54,303 nucleotides of DNA, from positions 1 through 54,303 of the forward strand of contig JAWOHG010000069.1 of assembly GCA_046485245.1 (NCBI GenBank). Direction: 5' to 3'. Positions 6,632 through 45,484 of the stretch are shown here, in pieces (within the stretch, counting starts at the first letter, position 1; the number at the start of each line of letters is the position of its first letter). Origin of the DNA: a bacterium (GTDB taxonomy: Bacteria; Hydrothermota; Tepidihabitantia; Tepidihabitantales; Tepidihabitantaceae). The notes beneath the pieces were generated by a model. The model was not told where the DNA came from, made no database searches, and saw nothing but the letters and a program-made list of their open reading frames with translations. The translations under genes and the position numbers were made by a program.

Positions 6632-8722
6632 TCAGTTCTGGGGCGCCGGCGGGGTCTGGCCGAACAGGGGGTAGAGCCGGATGCGCGTGTCTTCGTCGAC
6701 CGCGCTAAAGCGCTTGAACTGCATCGAGTTCGACGCCCGCCCCTGCGTTATGGAGCGCAGGCTTGTCGTATATCCGAAGGTGCGGGCGAGCGGCACCTCC
6801 GCGGTGACTATCTGGTATCCCTTGACCGGTTCCATCCGAGTGACGCGCCCGGACCGGGCGGTGATGTCGTTTAGGACAGCGCCGACAAACGCATCCGGCG
6901 TCACTACTTCAAGTTCCATTATCGGCTCGAGGAACGTCGGCCGCGCGGCGAGGAAGGCGTCGCGGAACGCGCCGGACGCCGCCACCTTGAAATCGACGTC
7001 ATTGCTGTCTTCCTGGTGCCAGGCTGCGTCGACGACGCGGGCGCAGATGTCTATGGCCTGGTAGCCGGCGAGGACCCCAGACTCGAAGCTGTCGCGGATC
7101 GCCTGCTCGATGGGCTGGACGAACTGGCGCGGCAGCGTGCCCGGGGCAAGCTCGTTGACAATCTTGTTGCCCTCGGCCGACGGCCCGAGCGATAGCTTCA
7201 CCACGGCGAAGTGGCCGTGGCCGCCGGCTTGCCGGACGAACCGGCCCTCGGCCGAGGCCGATCTCGTTACTGTCTCGCGGTAGGACACCTGCGGTTTGCC
7301 CGAGTGCACGCCGACCTTGTACTCGCGCTGGAGCCGGTCGAGCAGGATGTCGAGGTGCAGTTCGCCCATACCGGAGAGTATCAACTGGCCGGTCTCGGCG
7401 TCGGTCCGGGTCTTGAAGGTGGGGTCTTCCAGCGCGAGCGTTGCTATGGCATCGGCGAGCTTGTCGTCATCCGCCTTCGTTTTGGGTTCGATGGCCAGGA
7501 AGACGACCGGGTCGGGGAACTGCATTGCCTCAAAGGCAATCGGGTGCGACAAGTCGGCGAGGGTCTGGCCGGTGCGGCTTTCCTTCAGACCGACGACGGC
7601 GCCGATCTCGCCGGCCGAGAGCGACTCGACCTCCTGCTGGCGGTTGGCGTGCATGATGAGCAGCTTGGTCATGCGTACCCGCTTCATCTCCGGGATGCAC
7701 ATCACGACCTCGCCCTCGCGGACGGCGCCCGAATAGACGCGGATGTAGGAGAGCATCCCGCGGTGCTGGTCGGCGGCGAGCTTGAACACCAGGGCCGAGA
7801 AGGGGCCGTGCACATCGGCCTTGCGGGTTTCCTCCTTGCCGGTCTTCGGGTTGGTGCCGGCGACCGGCGGCAGGTCGAGCGGCGAAGGCAGGTAGTCGAC
7901 AATGCCGTCCAGCAGTTTCTGGACGCCCTTGTGGCGGAACGCGCTGCCGCAGAACACCGGGACGAGGCGCAGGGCGATCGTGCCGCGGCGCAGGGCCGCC
8001 TTCAGGTCTGCGGCGACGATGGGTTCACCGCTGACGTACTTACCGATGAGCGGTTCGTCGAAGGTGGTCAGCACGTCGATCAGTTCGGCGCGCGCCTGCG
8101 CAGTCGGTTCGACGAGGTCGTCCGGCACGGGAATCTCGGCCGGGGTCGCGCCGAGGTCGTCGTCGTTCCAGGCAAAGGCCCGGCCCTCGACCACATCGAC
8201 GATGCCTCGGAACGTGTCCTCGTTGCCGATGGGCAACTGGACCCGCACGGCGGTCTGTTCGAACTTCTCCTTCAGCGTGCGGACGACGCGGTCGTAGTCG
8301 GCCCCGGACCGGTCGAGTTTGTTGACGAAGGCGATGCGCGGGACGCGGTAGCGGTCGGCTTGGCGCCAGACGGTCTCGGACTGGGGTTCGACCCCGCCGA
8401 CCCCGCAGAAGACGATGACCGCGCCGTCGAGCACCTTGAGCGAGCGCTGGACCTCCATCGTGAAGTCGACGTGGCCGGGCGTGTCGATGATGTTGATGCG
8501 GTGGTCGAGCCAGGTGACAGTCGTGGCGGCCGCGGTGATGGTGATGCCGCGCTCGCGCTCCTGGACCATCCAGTCCATCTGCGTGTTGCCGTCGTCGATG
8601 TCGCCCATCCGATGGATGCGCCCGGTATAGAACAGGATGCGTTCGGTCGTCGTGGTTTTGCCGGCATCGATATGCGCGGCAATCCCGATGTTTCGGGTCT
8701 TGTCCATCAGCGGCAGGCTCAT
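6632..8722 (-). CDS. fusA: Elongation factor G, stand-alone paralogue-type context
   Basis: [32 protein letters not shown] and NKLDR GTPase motifs, full EF-G length (696 aa). Start set to the ATG at 8722 ([13 protein letters not shown]). The 186 upstream codons of the 882-aa track ORF are Arg/Ala-rich and overlap the divergent gene. Confidence 0.95.
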
Positions 8723-15207: not shown

Positions 15208-15231
15208 CACCGCGAGGGTGCACGGCGGGAG

Positions 15232-15287
15232 TAAGGGGCGGGGAACGAGGAACGGGGGACGGGGAACAGGGGTCGGGGGTCAGGTTC
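15232..15287. repeat. Heptanucleotide array, 8 units of CGGGGAA type
   Basis: TAAGGGG CGGGGAA CGAGGAA CGGGGGA CGGGGAA CAGGGGT CGGGGGT CAGGTTC in one register, immediately upstream of the rpmF -35 box. Confidence 0.75.
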
Positions 15288-15607
15288 GAAGCAGGCTGTC
15301 GAACGCCTCGCGAGCGGGGGTTTGACGCTACATGTAGAGGGGGGAGTGACTTCCGGGGTCAATCTGTAGTTCAGAAGGCGGGCCAACGAGGCGGAAGTCA
15401 GGGGTTTGAGCGTGCGGCCAAGCGTCGGTGTCAGGGGCTGTTTCAGCCCGGAGTCCAGTTAGAGTGTCAGTTGCGGGCAGAAGCGACCGGCAAAACTGCA
15501 CTTGAGCCGACGCGCGACGGTGGCGACCAGCCGAGGTCGGACCGAGTCGACGAACGACGGGTGCAGGGGCGGACGAATGCAGGGTGTCCTGTTGGAAGCC
15601 GAAGGCC

Positions 15608-15671
15608 GTCAGCCGTGAGCGGAGGCGAGAGATTCCTCCAATCGCGCCTGCGTCGCTCCGTCGGAATGACA
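15608..15671 (+). repeat. Conserved 64-nt intergenic module (copy 1 of 2)
   Basis: GTCAGCCGTGAGC...GAGATTCCTCCAATCGCGCCTGCGTCGCTCCGTCGGAATGACA. The 43-nt core from GAGATTCC differs at one position from 45340-45382. Flanked by GCYGTRA-type heptads at 15605-15620 and 15681-15710. Confidence 0.8.
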
Positions 15672-15727
15672 CCCTGTCTTGCCGTCAGCGTCAGCTGTAA
15701 GCTGTCGGCCGCGCACTGCGTGCCGGC

Positions 15728-32584: not shown

Positions 32585-34075
32585 CTAGCGTGAGAGGACT
32601 ATTCGGACTGAAGCCGGGCCGTCGGCAGTGACGGCGCGGCAGATGTAAGTGCCGGGTGAAACTCGGCGGCCCGTCTCGTCGCGGCCGTCCCAGAGGAGCG
32701 GGACGAGGGGCGAGGGATGGGGGGCGAGGGTGCGGACGAGGCGGCCGGAGACGTCGAGTATGGAGAGCGATCGAGTGGTCGAGTGGTCAAGTGAGAGGCA
32801 TACAGAGGAGCGGAACGGGTTAGGCGAGGCGGACAGGCGAGAGGCGGGCTGGACCACCTTCGACTCGGCAATGCCGACCGGGCCCAGGTAGGCGCGCAGG
32901 AGCGTGCCCGGCCCGGCGACGACCATCACGTTGCCGTGGGTGAGGACTGGGCCGCTGTAGTAGCAGTAACTGATGTCGTCGTGCCACAGCGTGTCGAGGT
33001 CGGGCGTGAGCGCCCAGATTCCACCTGAACCGGTCGAGGTGCTGACTGTGGCGAAGACGTTGCCCACCTCGTCGACCGTGATGCGCGGCGTGATGTCGGC
33101 AGATGCGAGCGGCGGCGAGGAGTCGAGCAGAACACCGGTGTGGCTGTCCAGGCGCAGGATGCGTGTTCCTTGCGGTAGATACAGGCTCTGGTCGCGGCCG
33201 ATGCCGTAGTTCTGCCAGGTCGAGCCGCCATAGCCGGGCGCGGTCCAGAGCTCGACGAACCCAGAGTCGGTGAGCTGCCAGCAGTAGAACAGCCCGCCGT
33301 CGCGCTGGCCATAGATTCGGCGTTCCTCACCGATGACAAACGGCAGTTCCTGGTCGCCGTCGCCGGGCAGTTCGGGCGTCCGCCAAAGCGTCTGACCGGT
33401 GTTGGCCGAGATGGCGATGAGGTACTTGGGCCGGTTGATGCCGAGGCCTTCCCACGCAAACACGAAGGTGTCGGTCATCGCGATCCACTCGGCACCGGTG
33501 TTGGGCACGGGGCGCGGGTTGGTCCAGACCGTATCGCCGGTCAGGCGGTCCAGCCGGGCAATGCCGCGTTCGGCGCATGGCGTGATGGGGTCGCCGTTCT
33601 CGGCGAACACGGCGCACCAGACGATGCCCAGCGGCGCGGTCCAGCGCGACTGCCAGAGGATGTCGCCAGTAGCGATGTCGGTGCAGAATATCGAGTCGTG
33701 ACCGGACTCGCGGAAGTTGCGCGAGTAGAGCCGGCCGTGGCTTGCGCCCATCGGGATGAACTTGCCGTCGGGCCGGTATAGCCTCGTCCAGACCGTGTCG
33801 CCGGTCCAGAGGTCGTGGCAGACGAGCGTCGCGGTGAACGGGCTGAAGGTGTAGCGGGTCGTGACAACATAGTCATGCCACACGTACACCTGCATCCCGA
33901 GGTTCGAGGGCAGGGTCTGAGCTTCCCAGAGCACCTGGCGGCTGGCCGGGCCGTAGCGCAACCTCGCCCAGCCGTTGTGTTCGTTGTTGCCGCCGACCGT
34001 GGTCCAGTCCTGCCCTGATGCAGCGGCCAGCAGCGCAAGTGTCAACAAGCCGACTCTCAATGTTCCTCCAGTCAA
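32585..34075 (-). CDS. PQQ-like beta-propeller repeat protein with T9SS CTD (tandem paralogue 3)
   Basis: Signal peptide. Repeated motifs DxxTGDxxW, LYCxD and GDTVWT. CTD: NPFRSSVCLSLDHSTTRSLSILDVSGRLVRTL...GTYICR. Confidence 0.85.
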   Translation of the reverse strand: MTGGTLRVGLLTLALLAAASGQDWTTVGGNNEHNGWARLRYGPASRQVLWEAQTLPSNLGMQVYVWHDYVVTTRYTFSPFTATLVCHDLWTGDTVWTRLYRPDGKFIPMGASHGRLYSRNFRESGHDSIFCTDIATGDILWQSRWTAPLGIVWCAVFAENGDPITPCAERGIARLDRLTGDTVWTNPRPVPNTGAEWIAMTDTFVFAWEGLGINRPKYLIAISANTGQTLWRTPELPGDGDQELPFVIGEERRIYGQRDGGLFYCWQLTDSGFVELWTAPGYGGSTWQNYGIGRDQSLYLPQGTRILRLDSHTGVLLDSSPPLASADITPRITVDEVGNVFATVSTSTGSGGIWALTPDLDTLWHDDISYCYYSGPVLTHGNVMVVAGPGTLLRAYLGPVGIAESKVVQPASRLSASPNPFRSSVCLSLDHSTTRSLSILDVSGRLVRTLAPHPSPLVPLLWDGRDETGRRVSPGTYICRAVTADGPASVRIVLSR

Positions 34076-35548: not shown

Positions 35549-37024
35549 TTACTGCTTCACAACCAGTTGAGTTGCGGTGACACCGGGCGCGCGGCATAGG
35601 TATGCGCCGGCCGGCAGTACCCGGCCCGCGTCGTCGCGGCCGTCCCAGGGGATGGGGGCGTGGGACGAGGTGCGAGGGGTGAGGGAACGAACGAGGCGGC
35701 CGGAGACGTCGAGTACCTGAAGTGGTCGAGTGGTCGAGTGGTCGAGTGAGAAGTGGACAAGAGAGCGGAACGGGTTGGGCCAGGCGCGGATTGCGGTTCG
35801 GCCGACGATCGCTTGTTCGGTGACCGCGTTCGGTGAATCGTAGACCTTCAGCAGGGTGCCGCCGCCGGCAATGGCGAGGAATCCGAAGTCGCTGATGGCC
35901 GGGTTCGAAGTACTGACGTTGAAGATGGAGTCGCACGCGATCGGCCGGAGGTCGGGCGAAAATACGTGCAGCGCACCGCCGGCGTAGCCGCCGTTGGTCG
36001 CGTACACCAGGCCGTCGGCGCCGACCGCCAAGTGGGCCGCAAAGACGGCGGTCGGGTCCTTGATGACCGGGCTTGAGTCGGTCGCCGCACCGGTCTGGGG
36101 GTCGAGCCGGACGACACGGCCGTCCGACAGGGCGTACACCGAGGAATCGGGTCCGCAGGCGAGCTGGGCCCACATCGCGGCCGGGTCCTCGCTCACCTCG
36201 TGAACCCAGCGGACGTGCAGGCTGTCGCCGTGGTCTTCGATGGCCGTCACGTTGTCGCCGCAGCGGTGGGCGTAGAGCACGCCGTCCGGCCCGGCGATGA
36301 TGTTGCCGTAGGGCGCGGTGCCGCCCGGGTGGGTATCCTCGACCAGGGCCGAGTCGAGCTTGCGGCCTGTGGCCAGGTCGAATGCATAGACCTTCAGGTT
36401 GCCGCCGACCAGGGCGCCACCGAACCCGTAGAATCGGTCGCCCGACACGGTCAGGTCGGCCGAGCCGGACACCGGCCAGACACGCGGCGTGGTCCAGACC
36501 GTGCTGCCGTCGGTGCGGTCTATGCGGGCAGTCTGGAACCCATCGCAACTCACGATGAGGTCGCCGTCCTCGGCAAAGGTCACGCTTTCGGAGAGGTACA
36601 TGTGGGCTTGGAGTGCCGCGGTCCAGAGCGTCGTGCCGCTGTCTGAGTCCAGGCAGTAGAGCGTGTCCGGGTAGGGACTGGTCAGTTCAACAGCGTAGAC
36701 CTGGTTGTCGCGGAATCCGACCGGCAGGGACCGCCCGCCCGGCGCACCGAGGTCGCGGGACCAAAGGTGGTAGCCGGACACGAGGTCGTGGCAGACGATT
36801 GGGCCGTTGGTGAAGTCGTAGCGGTAGGTGACCAGTTTGTAGTCACAGATGTAGACCTGCTGGCCGTACGAGCTGTAGGCGCTGCTGTCCCAGAGCACCC
36901 GGTCCAGGTAGGAGGTGGCGGTCGTCAGGGCCATCCCGGCCCGTCCCGCGTTTCCCCCGCCCGTGGTCCAGTCGGCGAGGGCCACAGCAGAGAGCAGGCA
37001 CAACAGCAGGGTAGTGCACTTCAT
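35549..37024 (-). CDS. PQQ-like beta-propeller repeat protein with T9SS CTD (tandem paralogue 1, operon-first)
   Basis: Signal peptide MKCTTLLLCLLSAVALA. Same collinear motifs as paralogues 2 and 3. CTD: NPFRSLVHFSLDHSTTRPLQVLDVSGRLVRSL...GAYLCR. Confidence 0.85.
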   Translation of the reverse strand: MKCTTLLLCLLSAVALADWTTGGGNAGRAGMALTTATSYLDRVLWDSSAYSSYGQQVYICDYKLVTYRYDFTNGPIVCHDLVSGYHLWSRDLGAPGGRSLPVGFRDNQVYAVELTSPYPDTLYCLDSDSGTTLWTAALQAHMYLSESVTFAEDGDLIVSCDGFQTARIDRTDGSTVWTTPRVWPVSGSADLTVSGDRFYGFGGALVGGNLKVYAFDLATGRKLDSALVEDTHPGGTAPYGNIIAGPDGVLYAHRCGDNVTAIEDHGDSLHVRWVHEVSEDPAAMWAQLACGPDSSVYALSDGRVVRLDPQTGAATDSSPVIKDPTAVFAAHLAVGADGLVYATNGGYAGGALHVFSPDLRPIACDSIFNVSTSNPAISDFGFLAIAGGGTLLKVYDSPNAVTEQAIVGRTAIRAWPNPFRSLVHFSLDHSTTRPLQVLDVSGRLVRSLTPRTSSHAPIPWDGRDDAGRVLPAGAYLCRAPGVTATQLVVKQ

Positions 37025-41488: not shown

Positions 41489-42199
41489 GTGACAGCATTC
41501 GGCATCCTGGCGCTGGTGACCGCGCTCCAGCCGCCCGCAGTCCACGCCGAGTCGCTCTACCTGAACCGCCACCTCGGGCCCGGCCTGCTGGACAGCGCCT
41601 GGACCCTCGTGGCGGATGCGCGAGCGCAGTCGCCGGCCGACCCGGCCTTGCTTGCGCTCTTGGCGCAGATGTGCGTCGAGCGCGGGGACCGTTCGGTCAA
41701 CACGGCCGGTAAACTGGCCTGGTATGACCGGGCCGCGGCCGTGGCCGACAGCCTGCGCATCGCCCGGCCTGACCTGCCGGCCGGGCACTTCTGGTGGGCC
41801 ACTGCGCGCGGCAGCGCCGGCCGCGTGCGCGGAGTGGTCAACTCGCTCGGCCTGCTCGGCCCGATACGCGCGGCATTCGAGCGGAGCGTCGAACTGGACT
41901 CGGGGTTCGCGTTGGGCTGGTACGCCTTGGGCAGGCTCTACCTCGAACTGCCGCCCGTGGCCGGGGGCAGCGCGGCCAAAGCCGAGCGCTTCCTGCGCGG
42001 AGCGCTCGCGGCCGACCCGCACCTCACCATCGCCCGGCTTGGCCTGGCCGAGGCCCTTGTCCGGCTCGGGCGCAAAGCTGAGGCGCGCGAGGAACTCGGG
42101 CGCGTACTCGGAGAGACCGCGCCGTCTCACCCGGCCGAGTTCGTGCTGTCCGACCGGCCCGCGGCAGAGGAGATGTTGCGGAGGATGGGAAGGAAGTGA
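41489..42199 (+). CDS. Secreted helical-repeat protein, paralogue of 28272-29012
   Basis: Signal peptide ILALVTALQPPAVHA. Conserved blocks shared with the 28272 product (see that entry). Confidence 0.65.
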   Translation: MTAFGILALVTALQPPAVHAESLYLNRHLGPGLLDSAWTLVADARAQSPADPALLALLAQMCVERGDRSVNTAGKLAWYDRAAAVADSLRIARPDLPAGHFWWATARGSAGRVRGVVNSLGLLGPIRAAFERSVELDSGFALGWYALGRLYLELPPVAGGSAAKAERFLRGALAADPHLTIARLGLAEALVRLGRKAEAREELGRVLGETAPSHPAEFVLSDRPAAEEMLRRMGRK

Positions 42200-42222
42200 A
42201 GAGAGGAGAAGGACGAGGGCGC

Positions 42223-42474
42223 GATGTCAGACGTGAGATGTCAGAGACCAGAGGTCAGAGGTGTCGGGCGAATGCAGAAATCAGAAGGCAGAATGGTGAA
42301 TGCAGAGTGCCCTACCTGAGCGAATGACTAATTCCAAAGGACGAATGACTAATCGAGCGCGGAATGGACGAAGAGCAAGGTCAGACCTTGGACTCTAGAC
42401 ATTCGACAGTAGGAATTCGGAATTGCCCACTTTCCACTGCATAGTCCTTTGGCCTTGATACTTGATTGCTTGCC
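42223..42474. repeat. 36-unit degenerate heptanucleotide array in a single register
   Basis: Reading in steps of 7 from 42223 gives GATGTCA GACGTGA GATGTCA GAGACCA GAGGTCA GAGGTGT CGGGCGA ATGCAGA AATCAGA AGGCAGA ATGGTGA ATGCAGA ... GACCTTG GACTCTA GACATTC GACAGTA GGAATTC GGAATTG CCCACTT TCCACTG CATAGTC CTTTGGC CTTGATA CTTGATT GCTTGCC. Confidence 0.85.
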
Positions 42475-42523: not shown

Positions 42524-42997
42524 ATGCCTACTAAGCAGGAGAGTTTCTACCTCGCCAAGCTCGAGTGGCTCGGGCCGATACTCGTGCGCGGCCTGCGCCT
42601 GATGCCGGCGGTCGAGGGGATGGAACGGGAGTTCTCCTTCTCCCAGACGCTCATCCTGATGATGCTGCTCACCCAGCAGAGCGTGAAGATGAAGGAGCTC
42701 GCCCGCCTGCTCGGGCTTTCCCGGGCCAACGCGACCGGGCTGGTGGACCGGCTGGAGGCACGCGGCCTGGTCGAGCGGCGGCACTCGACCGAGGACCGGC
42801 GGGTCGTGCACGTCAGCCTCACGCGCAAGGGCCAGCAGACTGCGCGCAAGCTCAATGAGGCCCGGCGCACGGGCCTCGCCCAGATGATGCGCCGCGTCCC
42901 GTCCAAGAACCTCTCCGTGTTCATCGAGACCCTCGAGCAGATGGCGATGGGCCTGGCCGAGACCCAGTCCGACCTGCTCCTGCCGCCCAAGAGCTGA
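42524..42997 (+). CDS. MarR family transcriptional regulator
   Basis: 157 aa. Winged-helix block LTQQSVKMKELARLLGLSRANATGLVDRLEARGLVERRHSTEDRRVVHVSLTRKG. Confidence 0.9.
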   Translation: MPTKQESFYLAKLEWLGPILVRGLRLMPAVEGMEREFSFSQTLILMMLLTQQSVKMKELARLLGLSRANATGLVDRLEARGLVERRHSTEDRRVVHVSLTRKGQQTARKLNEARRTGLAQMMRRVPSKNLSVFIETLEQMAMGLAETQSDLLLPPKS

Positions 42998-43004
42998 CGG
43001 CGCG

Positions 43005-43456
43005 GCGATTGTCGATTGACGGGCAGCCCCTCTCGCTACGCTCAGGGCGACTCGGCGTCGGATTGTCGATTGTCGATAGCCCGGCGGCGCACAGCTCACA
43101 GCTTACAGCCTACGGCTCACGGCAGGGCACATCTGACATCTGGTTTCTGACATCTCACCTCTGACCTCGCGTCCGCGATTCTGCACTCCCCATTCTGCCT
43201 TCTGACTTCTACATTCGCCCGCAGCGCAAGCGCACAGCTTGGGGCCGCAAACCACGGGACAGTCCCGTCGCCCCGGTCCGCTAGGTACAATCCCGGGTTT
43301 GCTCGGCTCACGGTTCACTCGCATCGCTTTGACATTTGGCCTTTGGCCTTTGGCTTTTGACTTAGTCCGGTGCCCGCTTCTGCATTCCCCATTCTGCCTT
43401 CTGACTTCTGCATTCGCCCGGCGATCCCTCGTCGGCGTCGGGATGACACCCCGCGG
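43005..43456 (+). repeat. Composite intergenic repeat R1 (long copy)
   Basis: 43005-43095 matches 44569-44659 at 90 of 91 nt. 43061-43221 reads as 23 heptads in one register. A second ANNCAGA-type block (reverse orientation) lies at 43377-43420. The end ...GGCGATCCCTCGTCGGCGTCGGGATGACACCCCGCGG matches the end of R2. Confidence 0.85.
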
Positions 43457-43514
43457 TACTTGAAATGGCGGCCTCGACTCTGCACACCCCCCTGCCTGCG
43501 TCCCAGTTTTCTTC

Positions 43515-43544
43515 TTGACATTGGTATTTCGTAGTCCAAACTAT
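43515..43544 (+). promoter_or_regulatory. Promoter/operator module TTGACA-N17/18-(A)AACTAT, 4-5 nt before GTG 43549
   Basis: cTTGACAttggtatttcgtagtccAAACTATttatGTG. Shares CTTGACATTGRTATTTCG, CAAACTAT and TGTGAYTGA with 37086-37128. Confidence 0.55.
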
Positions 43545-43548
43545 TTAT

Positions 43549-44583
43549 GTGACTGACATTCGACAGGCCAGCGCTACGCCCGGCCGGCTGGTCGCGGTGA
43601 CCGGGGCGGCCGGGCACCTGGGCAACGTGCTGGTGCGCCGGCTGGTCGAGGCGGGCCGGCCGGTGCGGGCGGTGGTGGCGCCGTTCGACGACCGGGGCGC
43701 GCTCGCCGGGCTGCCGGTCGAGTTCGCGGCGGCGGACGTACGCGACCCGGCCGCGCTCGAGCGGGCGTTCGCCGGGGCCGACACGGTGTTCCACCTGGCC
43801 GGGGTCATCACCATCCAGTCGGGCCAGGCGCGGTTGCTCGAGGCGGTCAACGTCGCGGGCACGCGCAACGCGATCGCTGCCTGCCGGGCCGCCGGGGTGC
43901 GCCGACTGGTCTACTCCAGCTCGGTCCACGCGTTACCCGAGCCACCGCACGGCCTGGCGGTGTGCGAGACGGGCGAGTTCCGGCCGGATGCCGTGCTCGG
44001 CGACTATGCCCGGTCCAAGGCGCGGGCCAGCATCGAGGTCAGGCGCGCGGCGCTGGACGGGCTCGACGCCGTGATGGTGTTCCCGTCGGGCATCATCGGG
44101 CCGCACGACTGGCGGCCGTCCGAGATGGGCCGGCTGTTCATCGCCTATGCCCGCGGCAGGATGCGGGCCGTGGTCGACGGTGGTTATGACTTCGTGGACG
44201 TGCGCGACGTGGCCGACGCGCTAATCAGCGCGGCCGAGCGCGGGCGCAGGGGAGAAGGGTACCTCGTGTCGGGGCATCGCATCACGGTGCGCGGCCTGTT
44301 CCGCCTGCTGGGCGAGTTCACCGGCGTGCGGCCGCCGCGGCTCAAGGTGCCGTTCCCGCTCGCGCGCGCCGGCGCGGCGCTGGCGCCGCTGTGGGCTCGA
44401 CTCACCCGTTCCAGCCCCCTGTTCACACCCTACTCGCTCGCGGTCCTGCGCTCTAACTGCGTGATGAACCGGTCCAAGGCCGAGCACGAATTCGGTTTCA
44501 GGCCGCGCCCACTGCGCGATACCGTGCTCGATACACTGGGTTGGTTCCGCTCGGTTGGGATGCTTGCTGCGATTGTCGAATGA
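43549..44583 (+). CDS. NAD(P)-dependent epimerase/dehydratase (extended SDR family)
   Basis: VTGAAGHLGNVLVRRL Rossmann motif and YARSK (YxxxK). 344 aa. The last five codons and the stop lie inside repeat R2. Confidence 0.88.
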   Translation: MTDIRQASATPGRLVAVTGAAGHLGNVLVRRLVEAGRPVRAVVAPFDDRGALAGLPVEFAAADVRDPAALERAFAGADTVFHLAGVITIQSGQARLLEAVNVAGTRNAIAACRAAGVRRLVYSSSVHALPEPPHGLAVCETGEFRPDAVLGDYARSKARASIEVRRAALDGLDAVMVFPSGIIGPHDWRPSEMGRLFIAYARGRMRAVVDGGYDFVDVRDVADALISAAERGRRGEGYLVSGHRITVRGLFRLLGEFTGVRPPRLKVPFPLARAGAALAPLWARLTRSSPLFTPYSLAVLRSNCVMNRSKAEHEFGFRPRPLRDTVLDTLGWFRSVGMLAAIVE

Positions 44584-44828
44584 CGGGCAGCCCCTCTCGC
44601 TACGCTCAGGGCGACTCGGCGTCGGATTGTCGATTGTCGATAGCCCGGCGGCGCACAGCCGACGGCCAATAGCTGACAGCTTACAGCTCGCGGCTCGCAG
44701 CAGGGCACCTCTGACATCTGGTCTCTGACATCTCACGTCTGACCTCGCGTCCCCGATTCTGCATTCAGTATTCTGCGTTCTGAATTCACCCGGCGATCCC
44801 TCCTCGGCGTCGGGATGACACCTCGCGG
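44569..44828 (+). repeat. Composite intergenic repeat R2 (short copy)
   Basis: Collinear with R1. 44625-44792 reads as 24 heptads in one register. Relative to R1 it has two more NNACAGC-type units and one fewer TCTGNNT-type unit. Confidence 0.85.
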
Positions 44829-44852: not shown

Positions 44853-45002
44853 CTACGCGTGGTGCAGGACCCGGCCCGGGGTGCAGTCGGGACAGAAGTC
44901 GGACCGGCTCGTGTGGACCTCGAGGCAGTCCTCGCAGCACGGCCTGCCGCAATCGTCACATACGCAGTCGGTCATCCGGCCGCAGATTGAGCATTCTGAC
45001 AT
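44853..45002 (-). CDS. 49-aa Cys-rich zinc-finger microprotein
   Basis: The ATG at 45002 has GGAGG 7 nt upstream and its own TTGATT-16-TATAAT promoter. Sequence MSECSICGRMTDCVCDDCGRPCCEDCLEVHTSRSDFCPDCTPGRVLHHA (10 Cys; pattern CxxC-x7-CxxC-x3-CCxxC-x3-H-x8-CxxC). The track ORF begins 11 codons upstream. Confidence 0.7.
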   Translation of the reverse strand: MSECSICGRMTDCVCDDCGRPCCEDCLEVHTSRSDFCPDCTPGRVLHHA

Positions 45003-45055
45003 CTGACAACCTCCTGTGCGCCAGCGGGCGCGCATCTCACCAGTCTCTCGGGAAA

Positions 45056-45083: not shown

Positions 45084-45100
45084 GACCGCCCGGCGGGAGA

Positions 45101-45233
45101 CGGTCAGGGGTCAGGGGACAGGGTTCGGGGATCAGCGTCCTGCCGTAAGCCGTGAGCTGTGAGCTGTAAGCTGGAAGGGGTCAGGGTTCAGGGTCCTGCC
45201 GTCAGCCGTAGGCTGTGAGCCGTGAGTCGTCAG
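45101..45233. repeat. 19-unit heptanucleotide array with a higher-order G-block/C-block structure
   Basis: CGGTCAG GGGTCAG GGGACAG GGTTCGG GGATCAG CGTCCTG CCGTAAG CCGTGAG CTGTGAG CTGTAAG CTGGAAG GGGTCAG GGTTCAG GGTCCTG CCGTCAG CCGTAGG CTGTGAG CCGTGAG TCGTCAG. Confidence 0.85.
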
Positions 45234-45323
45234 CAGTCCAGTCACCGCGAGCGCAGCGTGGCGGTCTTCCTCAGAAGATTGCCACGGCCGCCAAAGCGGC
45301 CTCGCAATGACCAACCTCCTGAT

Positions 45324-45420
45324 GTCAGCCGCGAGCCGGGAGATTCCTCCAATCGCGCCTGCGGCGCTCCGTCGGAATGACAAGTGGGGTGGCGCTGGAC
45401 GGCGCTCCGTCGGAATGACA
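45324..45420 (+). repeat. Conserved intergenic module (copy 2) plus partial tandem copy
   Basis: The 43-nt core at 45340-45382 matches 15629-15671 at all but one position. GGCGCTCCGTCGGAATGACA is repeated at 45401-45420. Confidence 0.8.
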
Positions 45421-45475
45421 GGCCGCCAACCGGCGCGCGGGGCTGCACGTTCTTGTGGCGCTGAGGCGCGGGGGA

Positions 45476-45484
45476 TGGTAGAAT
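45476..45484 (+). promoter_or_regulatory. Extended -10 promoter TGgTAGAAT, 8 nt before ATG 45493
   Basis: gaTGgTAGAATgcgctacaATGtcg. No SD sequence. Near-leaderless geometry for the first gene of the EPS operon. Confidence 0.55.

Follow-up and report, generated by a model that had tools for sequence, protein, structure and literature searches.

What does it mean when two neighbouring bacterial genes end in the same patchwork of short repeats? The question is posed by a contig of 54,303 nt (JAWOHG010000069.1; GC = 68%), which we call the window throughout, meaning the whole stretch, so that copy counts given for the contig are counts within it. The nearest proteins to its elongation factor G (EF-G) are named candidate division WOR-3, at 68-72% identity. 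Here a gene of the marR family and a gene of the SDR/epimerase family, both on the plus strand, are followed by composite repeats, R1 and R2 respectively, built largely of degenerate 7-nt units, or heptads, laid head to tail. The full local order is a TPR gene, repeat R0, marR, R1, the SDR/epimerase gene, R2, a small Cys-rich gene on the minus strand and repeat R3. Our answer, which on balance we believe to be the probable one, is that R1 and R2 both exemplify a patchwork of repeats found in intergenic regions across the WOR-3 lineage: heptad arrays prone to slippage, reworked by ectopic conversion or template switching, with small elements nested inside them. These nested E elements, as we call them, are possibly mobile. 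The composites themselves we regard as roughly neutral, recombination-prone filler that can incidentally remodel the 3' ends of genes; a function is unproven, and we found no evidence of a sequence-specific role in RNA. They are of the same general kind as the heptad repeats of cyanobacteria and Xanthomonas and the mosaics of repetitive extragenic palindromes (REP) and bacterial interspersed mosaic elements (BIME), not a new system.

Anatomy of R1 and R2

A sequence-only reading of the locus had described R1 and R2 as collinear copies with nearly identical beginnings and lengths that differ by entire heptads, and on anatomy it proved right almost throughout. The stretches of 91 nt that begin at 43005 and 44569, which we call the head, differ at one base (GATTGAC vs GAATGAC). 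Both copies then keep a 7-nt register, from 43061 for 23 units and from 44625 for 24. There are five CAGC-type units, NNAC(A/G)GC, in R1 and seven in R2, and one more TCTG-type unit in R1 than in R2. When the tails behind the heads are aligned there are 137 matches, 18 mismatches and two gaps, of exactly 14 and 7 nt, so the length differences do fall in whole units; indels of 7 and 14 nt also rule out a conserved reading frame in R1/R2. The extra segment that had been noticed in R1 amounts to 155 nt, includes the TTTGGCC run and is followed by the second TCTGC block. It has no second copy in any sequence compared, and the closest relative, L001, differs there. One detail of position needed amending: R1 does follow the marR stop, as had been said, but begins 8 nt past it and not directly at it.

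The head itself is a sandwich. Two heptads, GATTGTC GAWTGAC, are followed by a 40-nt element without heptads, E1, and then by GATTGTC GATTGTC GATAGCC. No match to its 24-mer core is expected in shuffled sequence, and the contig holds two copies of the head only. We considered whether E1 stands in register with the heptads and ruled it out: E1 is 40 nt long and the flanking GATTGTC units are spaced 54 nt apart, which is not a multiple of 7. In R2 the head does something more, as the earlier reading had seen, since it supplies the C terminus of a protein: GCG ATT GTC GAA TGA gives the last SDR codons and the stop, with the open reading frame (ORF) ending at 44583. Two layers can be told apart in our model. 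The degenerate heptad arrays gain and lose whole units, presumably by replication slippage, and small conserved non-heptad elements of the E family, with E1 as the core of the head, are nested in them.

Relatives and the order of events

The order in which this was assembled can be read from syntenic relatives. L001 is an independent assembly from NCBI (GCA_965649315.1), with an SDR protein 99% identical to that of the window; L002 to L011 come from ten Logan samples (83%), and L012 from a JGI metagenome (79%). In L012 the spacer between marR and the SDR gene is 61 nt long and consists of the conserved promoter region alone. There is no R1, and R1 is therefore dispensable. In L002 the spacer is 208 nt and R1 is partly present, as a CAGC-type array right after the marR stop. 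The L002 SDR gene ends ...GCG ATT GTC GAT AGC TCA GCG GCC AAC GGC TGA and runs into a GATTGTC/CAGC array. L002 lacks E1 and both the CTGAC and TCTGC blocks at the R1 site and at the R2 site. Because L002 has arrays at both sites, these arrays are older than the split from L002, and the same comparison shows the first R2 heptad to have been part of the SDR gene before E1 arrived. The tail of the SDR protein that R2 encodes is its unconserved end.

Set side by side, the empty and filled R2 sites are plain to see: GCG ATTGTCG ATAGC in L002 and GCG ATTGTCG (AATGAC GGGCAG...GGCGTCGG) ATTGTCG ATTGTCG ATAGC in the window. The native end of the SDR gene in L002 is GCGATTGTCGATAGC, and the head of R1 in the window carries these flanks; it ends in GATAGCCCGGCGGCGC, which is native to the R2 site of L002 and absent from its R1 site. 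Since the R1 head carries flanks that belong to R2, the head was copied from R2 to R1. The two parts of the repeat also differ in age. Divergence between R1 and R2 is 1/91 in the head vs 18/155 in the tail (Fisher p = 0.002), which fits an older spread of a CAGC-CTGAC-TCTGC-E3 composite (E3 being a short E-like element at the common 3' end) and then a recent copying of a patch. The suggestion of gene conversion, or recent copying of the head, had come from the sequence-only reading, and the divergence, the absence of the head from both L002 loci and the R2-native flanks in R1 all bear it out.

We would therefore reconstruct the history as follows, with the outgroups showing the order of the first two steps and the mechanisms being what we infer. 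The ancestor shared with L002 had a GATTGTC/CAGC array after the SDR gene and a CAGC array after marR. In the lineage of the window E1 then entered the GATTGTC array at the 3' end of the SDR gene, bringing a new TGA stop and a shorter protein tail. CAGC-CTGAC-TCTGC-E3 composites would have come to lie at both sites, where they are now ~12% diverged. More recently a patch of ~88 nt, E1 with its R2-native heptad flanks, would have been copied from R2 to R1, joining in the CAGC heptads that both share. The likely means for such copying and for the replacement of tails is ectopic gene conversion or template switching between arrays with units in common, primed in the case of the patch by those CAGC heptads, and E elements could spread by riding on conversions or through some mobilizing activity. 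As to selection, the R1 CAGC block and its L002 orthologue differ by one heptad, and array identity between window and L002 is 0.82-0.84, beside 0.66-0.74 at 4-fold sites, in a comparison that is short and of low complexity; it gives no strong sign of purifying selection on the orthologous arrays. With 2.2% between window and L001 as well, substitution in the arrays runs close to the neutral rate.

Turnover between strains

The same processes appear to be ongoing between strains, with the tail of R1 swapped and an E-family element gained inside R2. Coding sequences of the window and L001 are 99.5-99.8% identical (marR has 1 difference in 474 nt, the SDR gene 5 in 1035 nt), while substitutions reach 2.3% in R0 and 2.2% in R2. 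The heads show none in 182 nt; the rate in neighbouring intergenic sequence predicts ~4 (P = 0.017). R1 is identical for its first ~190 nt and then becomes a different mosaic, which in L001 consists of a second CAGC/CTGAC/TCTGC set and heptads complementary to the G-rich type. In R2, inside the CTGAC block, L001 has a 42-nt stretch related to E1, CCGGCGACCCTTCGCCAAGCCTCAGGGCGACACTCCGTGTCG, in place of the 8 nt CTCTGACA of the window, a net gain of 34 nt.

Unit counts, by comparison, are quiet. They are equal between the window and L001 in the parts of the arrays that the two share, and among the ten L002-type samples every spanning assembly has an R1 of 208 nt and an R2 of 220 nt. The sole indel in that population is one extra heptad, TGGACTC, in L007, and it lies in another array. 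Because variation in the L002 population is so low, the arrays are not hypermutable contingency loci; at the scale of strains they change mainly by block replacement.

Synteny of the window with L001, L002 and L012 ends at ~45233, which is the end of R3. Past this point an FMN_bind gene comes next in all three relatives, with a peptidase S8 gene behind it in L001, and the window has neither (regions compared: L001 2970-6297, L002 11600-11746, L012 12176-12571). The 3.3 kb that lie downstream in L001 have no match anywhere in the window, which continues with unrelated genes. This break is either a real rearrangement at an array or a chimeric join in the contig of a metagenome-assembled genome (MAG).

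Heptad arrays across the window

R1 and R2 are not alone. They belong to a patchwork of degenerate heptanucleotide arrays that fills several intergenic regions of the window in both orientations. Tandem Repeats Finder reports period-7 arrays at 43061-43168, 43327-43415, 44625-44787 and 45102-45238. The window has 6-7 period-7 array segments vs 0-3 for periods 4-12, and all the period-7 segments fall within the ~17% of it that is non-coding. Unit types are GATTGTC, NNACRGC, TCTGACN, TCTGCNN, GGGGTCA and TTTGGCC. That some blocks of R1 and R2 recur inverted nearby was another correct call: the CTGAC and TCTGC blocks do so in R0, and the CAGC block at 45137-45240. R0 has its block order swapped relative to R1 and R2 and is 86-95% complementary to 43128-43221, 43379-43420 and 44706-44755, with nhmmer matches too. 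A second array-rich region lies at 15.2-15.7 kb, where inverted CAGC-type heptads (15588-15620, 15680-15711) surround a copy of another element, E4. At the site of R3 the position is kept and the unit type replaced, with GGTCAGG / GCTGTGA arrays in the window vs AAGGACG arrays in L002.

A family of small elements

The 22-mer at the 3' end of E1, GCTCAGGGCGACTCGGCGTCGG, takes the story beyond this contig. It occurs at 14 loci in JGI metagenomes, 12 of them distinct and apparently non-orthologous, with GC of 59-68%. At each of these other loci the 22-mer forms the 3' end of an element of 40-65 nt with the consensus GAGAGACCC(T/A)YTCG(A/C)CT..GCTCAGGGCGACTCGGCGTCGG, whose 3' half is invariant in our alignment because the 22-mer was the search pattern. 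The earlier reading had proposed constraint on the head or its mobility; a 22-mer identical at 12 distinct loci and 0/182 changes between strains support this proposal in part.

Directly 3' of E1, at nearly all loci, there are short tandem units: heptads of the TTNGCAG type, AATCTGTGG 9-mers at L018, ATTGTCG at L023, which is the closest relative of the window E1. The same unit type often stands on the 5' side too, and 15-25 nt upstream there is often a GC hairpin with a co-varying stem and GCGAGT. The loci also have heptad arrays resembling the CAGC, TCTGC and CTGAC types, some in the spacers of an Mbh/Mrp operon (L017/L031). At L017, the one locus so assigned, the best named matches of a hydrogenase large-subunit protein show the host to be WOR-3; L031 and L032 are 99.994% identical to the L017 locus and hence uninformative as strain comparisons. 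Whether copies always abut stop codons had been asked, and they do not. E1 relatives and arrays lie after stop codons, upstream of genes, between convergent and between divergent genes and inside operons, and the L023 copy of E1 sits between a promoter-like site and a start codon. No E1 22-mer and no CTGAC block turned up in viral contigs. The EF-G neighbourhoods of three WOR-3 loci (L028-L030) have no heptad arrays; the corresponding part of the window has none either, so they have no bearing on distribution.

Further small elements, of hairpin type, cluster at 45278..45420 on the plus strand, and of E3, E4, a partial E4 and E6 most end ...CGTCGG(G/A)ATGAC. E6 alone forms a significant hairpin (Table 1); the folds of E3 and E4 are no more stable than those of shuffled sequences. 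As a candidate mover of E1 we looked at an IS256-family (Mutator-type) transposase at L026 (778-2135) and rejected it, because it belongs to a separate element that ends 175 nt from E1. The termini of this element are GTCTGCAAA(A/T)TG-like, and its adjacency to E1 appears simple.

One could go further. The E family may be a class of mobile elements of WOR-3 not described before, very small (40-65 nt), neither palindromic nor autonomous, with E1 as the variant in the window. Its members would specifically target or seed short-period arrays and, jointly with the heptads, make up a system across the lineage that drives ectopic recombination, rewrites intergenic regions between strains 99.5% identical in coding sequence, relocates stop codons into the ends of genes and marks breakpoints in synteny. 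We offer this tentatively and would not be surprised to see it fail.

In other WOR-3 contigs whole intergenic regions are made of heptads (L020 11290-11720, L025 3340-3560 and L031 11212-11330), with units AAATCCC, AGTTNCC, AAGTCCA and TTCTGCA. The runs are punctuated by short GC hairpins with compensating changes in their stems: CGCGttcCGCG, CGCTctgAGCG and GCGGCttcGCCGC+GAGT. Array arms in these contigs are often inverted pairs, including inside the Mbh/Mrp operon.

Weighing the explanations

The plainest alternative is a local segmental duplication, in which a segment of ~260 nt was duplicated once between neighbouring intergenic regions and then drifted, with no wider family behind it and nothing still going on. 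The head has two copies only in the contig, the copies are collinear and 1.5 kb apart, and the GTDB representative genomes have no copy of the head, all of which would suit such an event. A single event does not, however, give 1% divergence in the head and 12% in the tail. The blocks are also found inverted at 42214-42306 and 45137-45240, in the former with order swapped, the core of the head has a family at 12 other distinct metagenomic loci, other WOR-3 contigs have similar heptad blocks, and the outgroups had arrays at both sites before the head arrived. The sequence-only reading had named two lone copies without conservation in relatives as the sign of a simple duplication; the E1 family and the arrays in other contigs largely refute that, and we consider the duplication improbable. 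A discrete non-autonomous element resembling a miniature inverted-repeat transposable element (MITE), inserting as a unit next to stop codons, is less probable again, and indeed very improbable. It would account for the coinciding ends of R1 and R2, which start GCGATTGTCGA and end ...GGGATGACACCYCGCGG, and for their presence in the lineage of the window and absence from L002 and L012. It meets the difficulty that there are no terminal inverted repeats and no target-site duplication at R1, that the internal CAGC arrays are orthologous to L002 arrays at both sites, that the R tail accompanies E1 at 0 of the 12 other loci and that R0 has the same blocks in a different order. Least probable of all is an assembly artefact, a collapsed or chimeric short-read assembly that made the duplicate head or the structure of R1. 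Such repeats are hard to assemble, and the loss of synteny where R3 ends may mark a chimeric join. The duplicate head is nevertheless no artefact, because in L001, assembled independently, both loci have a head that matches down to the one differing base, the flanks are identical and the first ~190 nt of R1 are the same, and the ten Logan assemblies of the relative concur on the lengths of R1 and R2.

Could the repeats work instead as RNA, as terminators, stabilizers in the 3' untranslated region or protein-binding, sponge-like sequences in the marR and SDR transcripts? REP/BIME elements in operon spacers stabilize upstream mRNA, and heptad arrays do occur in the Mbh/Mrp operon spacers mentioned above. 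Each of R0, R1 and R2 starts no more than 15 nt from a stop codon, and in Xanthomonas heptamer repeats, most of them transcribed, are concentrated within 50 bp of stop codons (Rehm et al. 2015, PMC4692102). A terminator or 3'-untranslated role, which had been suggested for both copies, nonetheless found no support. Between 41900 and 45600 there are 0 terminator-like sites (a GC-rich hairpin with a T-run) vs 1.6 expected in shuffles. Folding is no better than that of shuffled sequence for the head (z of -0.1 to +0.7 on the plus strand, +1.7 on the minus strand), for R2 (+0.44) or for R1 (+1.01), and a consensus fold of 13 E1-family copies gave no covariation and nothing beyond six invariant pairs. 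Neither R1 nor R2 contains an inverted repeat of at least 10 nt. The whole window has no Rfam match at gathering score, the region and seven related loci have chance-level matches only at relaxed E-values, and no tRNA or tmRNA was found. The blocks of R0 are inverted past yet another stop, so that the RNA would be the complement, and a strand-specific role is disfavoured because R0, oppositely oriented, also follows a plus-strand stop. L012 does without R1 altogether, and the R1 tail has been replaced between strains 99.5% identical in coding sequence. We would give this explanation about as little credence as the local duplication. Slightly less goes to the thought that the heptads act at the level of DNA, as iterated operator-like or nucleoid-protein sites regulating neighbouring promoters. 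Heptamer direct repeats can be regulator sites (bioRxiv 10.1101/2022.06.06.494920), as they are for SARP regulators and at the ctxAB promoter, with a proposal for Nostoc. R1 directly precedes the conserved SDR promoter, R3 stands in the same relation to a promoter-like site for the small Cys-rich gene, and positions are kept while unit type changes. Set against this, the units are degenerate and of several unrelated types side by side, orientation and block order vary, orthologous sites differ in unit type (AAGGACN in L002 vs GGTCAGG / GCTGTGA in the window), L012 has the same conserved promoter and no array, and the arrays lie outside the conserved promoter/operator stretch.

Some observations also sit uneasily with the patchwork that we favour. 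The stop-proximal starts of R0, R1 and R2 match the placement in Xanthomonas (PMC4692102) and could reflect function, and the arrays stay at the same intergenic positions while their unit type is replaced, which hints at a site-specific cause. Mobility of the E elements may be nothing but gene conversion: the 42-nt stretch in L001 has no target-site duplication and is not a clean insertion, and Pfam finds no enzyme able to move such elements among 20 window proteins. A 21-mer of the head had only a chance match, in a Deinococcus coding sequence, among GTDB representative genomes, which therefore do not include the species. Finally, zero changes in the heads between strains and a 22-mer identical across species point to some constraint on E1, which a purely neutral model does not explain.

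Likeness to known repeats

Heptanucleotide tandem arrays of the short tandemly repeated repetitive (STRR) or long simple sequence repeat (LSSR) type are what R1 and R2 most resemble. They have 7-nt units placed head to tail, period 7 is favoured, they are non-coding and they change length by whole units; like STRR/LSSR they are dispersed and mostly intergenic, come in several unit families per genome and have a function that is unresolved. Such repeats are typical of larger, high-GC or non-pathogen genomes. The STRR heptanucleotides were reportedly described in cyanobacteria by Mazel and colleagues in 1990; their units are CCCCAGT, TTGGTCA and CAACAGT, and their hosts heterocystous cyanobacteria. 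In the strict sense R1 and R2 are not STRR, having units GATTGTC, NNACRGC, TCTGACN, TCTGCNN and TTTGGCC and a WOR-3 host. Their units are far more degenerate (70-85% identity between neighbours), and they join different unit types in one register as composites, which are themselves duplicated. For long simple sequence repeats slippage was proposed as the source of the heptamer excess by Mrazek et al. 2007, as relayed in PMC4679880 and also summarized in PMC4692102. The GGGNATC / GGGGAYT heptamer repeats of Xanthomonas and Nostoc (Rehm et al. 2015, PMC4692102) are likewise over-represented in non-coding DNA, variable in unit number and often found <=50 bp past a stop between co-oriented genes. 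To this G-tract type belong the window arrays at 45102-45197 and 15223-15293 (GGGGTCA / GGGGACA / GGGGACG). The units of R1 and R2, by contrast, are not G-rich, have no G-tracts and cannot form G-quadruplexes, so these two are not repeats of the GGGNATC kind; they also show no preference for four units and have nested elements that are not heptads.

Elhai and colleagues are said to have described, in Nostoc punctiforme in 2008, small dispersed repeats (abbreviated SDR, like our gene family) of 21-27 nt nested in other repeats, tandem heptamers included, which close relatives may have or lack. This is close to E1, which a GATTGTC array encloses and L002 does not have, and to the E-family element found in the CTGAC block of L001 only, with no associated transposase. 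The likeness is one of description. E elements are 40-65 nt and not 21-27 nt long, and both polymorphisms observed at this locus resemble the replacement of a patch, or gene conversion, more than a clean insertion. With REP/BIME the locus has in common short extragenic elements in mosaic intergenic regions, downstream of genes and in operon spacers, and E6 (with E3 and E4 as reverse complements) reads as an NGTC tag and then a stem beginning AT. A REP is an imperfect palindrome of 20-40 bp with an 8-9 bp stem starting AT, a loop of 4-5 nt and a GTAG or CGTC tag, and the CGTC-1 units of Neisseria are intermingled with repeats of other families (Di Nocera et al. 2013, PMC3733652). E1 is no palindrome and folds no better than shuffles, and the stems at this locus are of ~5 bp and their loops long. 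Most of R1 and R2 consists of tandem heptads, which are foreign to REP/BIME mosaics. No RAYT (a Y1 transposase) was found among the 20 window proteins (Pfam) or the called genes of related loci, and no other transposase among the 20 window proteins.

The TAACTGA direct repeats of marine Beggiatoaceae (MacGregor 2015, PMC4679880) are also intergenic heptamers with a patchy phylogeny and a regulatory role that is proposed but unproven. They are exact, of one unit and mostly a few nt before start codons, whereas the arrays here are degenerate, of several types and mostly past stops or far from starts. R1 and R2 are not MITEs, for they have no terminal inverted repeats, and there is no duplication either at the R1 head or at the L001 element, which replaces 8 nt; in R2 a 7-nt ATTGTCG repeat flanks E1 and cannot be distinguished from the array's own unit. 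Nor are they phase-variable contingency simple sequence repeats, given degenerate units and R1/R2 lengths that are constant across the ten-sample relative. In the literature we found no paper that links WOR-3 with heptamer repeats, and none for the related hairpin strings by literal-sequence search.

The region and its other features

Table 1. Genes, repeats and nested elements discussed in the text, by position in the window
Feature	Position	Strand	Remarks
G-rich heptad array, GGGGACG / GGGGTCA type	15223..15293	+	within a 580-nt intergenic region
E4, second full copy	15622..15671	+	94% identical to 45333-45382
TPR gene	41489-42199		R0 begins 15 nt past its stop
R0	42214..42306	-	inverted CTGAC block 42214-42263 and TCTGC block 42265-42306
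marR-family gene	42524..42997	+	between inverted blocks R0 and R1; Pfam MarR in orthologues
R1, whole	43005..43456	+	between marR stop (42997) and conserved SDR promoter region (~43494-43548)
R1 heptads GATTGTC GATTGAC	43007..43020	+	5' side of E1
R1 copy of E1	43021..43060	+	GGGCAGCCCCTCTCGCTACGCTCAGGGCGACTCGGCGTCG, 40 nt; nhmmer E = 5e-11
R1 heptads GATTGTC GATTGTC GATAGCC	43061..43081	+	3' side of E1
R1 CAGC-type block	43082..43128	+	5 NNACRGC units and CAGGGC linker; orthologous to L002 array right after marR stop
R1 CTGAC-type block	43129..43165	+
R1 TCTGC-type block, first copy	43180..43221	+
R1-specific insert	43222..43376	+	with TTTGGCC array 43327-43361
R1 TCTGC-type block, second copy	43377..43420	+
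R1 copy of E3	43421..43456	+	short E-like element GCGATCCCTCGTCGGCGTCGGGATGACAC...; common 3' end of R1/R2
SDR/epimerase-family gene	43549..44583	+	last codons (A-I-V-E-stop) read from first R2 heptads
R2, whole	44569..44828	+
R2 heptads	44571-44584	+	SDR stop TGA at 44581-44583 within
R2 copy of E1	44585-44624	+
R2 heptads GATTGTC x2 and GATAGCC	44625-44645	+
R2 CAGC block	44646-44706	+	7 units
R2 CTGAC block	44707-44743	+
R2 TCTGC block	44756-44792	+
R2 copy of E3	44793-44828	+
R3	45087..45240	-	G-rich GGTCAGG-type heptads (45102-45136, 45178-45197) alternating with inverted CAGC-type blocks (45137-45177, 45198-45240)
E6	45278-45312	+	ATTGC..GCAAT hairpin; fold z = -2.7
E4	45333-45382	+
Partial E4	45395-45420	+	ends ...CGTCGGAATGACA

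The arrangement of the arrays leaves single genes in brackets. The marR gene stands between inverted repeats of ~93 nt (42214-42306 with 43128-43221), 86-95% complementary and ~820-860 nt apart, and the small Cys-rich gene between inverted CAGC arrays, those of R2 (44646-44706) and R3 (45137-45240). Recombination between the arms of R0/R1 or R2/R3 would invert single genes, and no evidence of inversion was seen. The G-tract heptads at 45102-45197 (GGGGTCA GGGGACA GGGTTCG GGGATCA) and at 15223-15293 (GGGGACG GGGAACA GGGGTCG) each have at least 4 G-runs, and in this they resemble the G-quadruplex-forming repeats of Xanthomonas and Nostoc. AAGGACN heptads and their complement GTCCTTN form long imperfect palindromes around centres such as CAAGGTCAGACCTTG (window 42307-42460; L002 9110-9260 and 11440-11600; L012 11020-11140 and 11900-12170), and their GGA-rich arms resemble CsrA/Rsm-type binding motifs.

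Before the SDR gene, all relatives have the conserved stretch TTCTTGACATTGGTATTTCGTAGTCCAAACTATTTATGTGACTGACATT (window 43494-43560; L002 9896-9965; L012 9950-10012), which is probably the SDR promoter together with a predicted MarR operator. Because the annotated GTG start at 43549 falls within this stretch and the L002 gene is called 16 codons later (equivalent to 43597 in the window), the SDR start may be mis-called. The small Cys-rich ORF (...CVCDDCGRPCCEDCLEVH...CPDC...; 44853-45035, minus strand) is 90% identical in DNA to L002 11199-11348 and so far better conserved than its surroundings. Upstream of it lies a strong promoter-like site, TTGATT-16-TATAAT (45083-45056), and in related loci it belongs to no Pfam family. 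On the other side of R3, an ORF of 682 aa is called from ATG 45307, with its 5' end (45307-45480) within the E6, E4 and partial E4 repeats, one of which has an intergenic twin at 15622-15671, and a promoter-like TTGTGG...TAGAAT at ~45453-45484. Its true start is probably further downstream and its N terminus spurious; the 682-aa protein has no Pfam domain.

Short-period repeats are found inside genes, too. Two paralogous PQQ beta-propeller genes on the minus strand (32585-34075 and 35549-37024) encode C-terminal sorting domains of the type IX secretion system type (...NPFRS...LDVSGRLVR...WDGRD...), and within these domains (32634-32831, 35589-35786) are 8-nt tandem repeats, TCGAGTGG x2.9 and AGTGGTCG x3.5. 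The sorting domains also have a G-rich period-7 stretch inside coding sequence, as does the L012 orthologue (7984-8045).

What the locus may tell us

Among long simple repeats, heptanucleotide arrays are the commonest class in many large, GC-rich bacterial genomes, and ever since the cyanobacterial STRRs were described it has been a puzzle how they arise and what they do. What the present locus adds is a dated, stepwise case from an uncultured phylum, in which an array persists, its units change, an element enters, a patch is copied, a tail is swapped and the C terminus of a protein is re-specified. There is a practical side as well: such regions are apt to give rise to spurious ORF calls, as at the 5' end of the 45307 ORF, and to contig breaks or chimeric joins in MAGs. 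For us the greatest interest lies in the E-family element, conserved and nested in arrays throughout WOR-3, and in the turnover between strains that it reveals. If the same proves true genome-wide, WOR-3 would be a useful natural system in which to ask whether heptad arrays are substrates for recombination, landing pads for tiny mobile elements, or regulatory.

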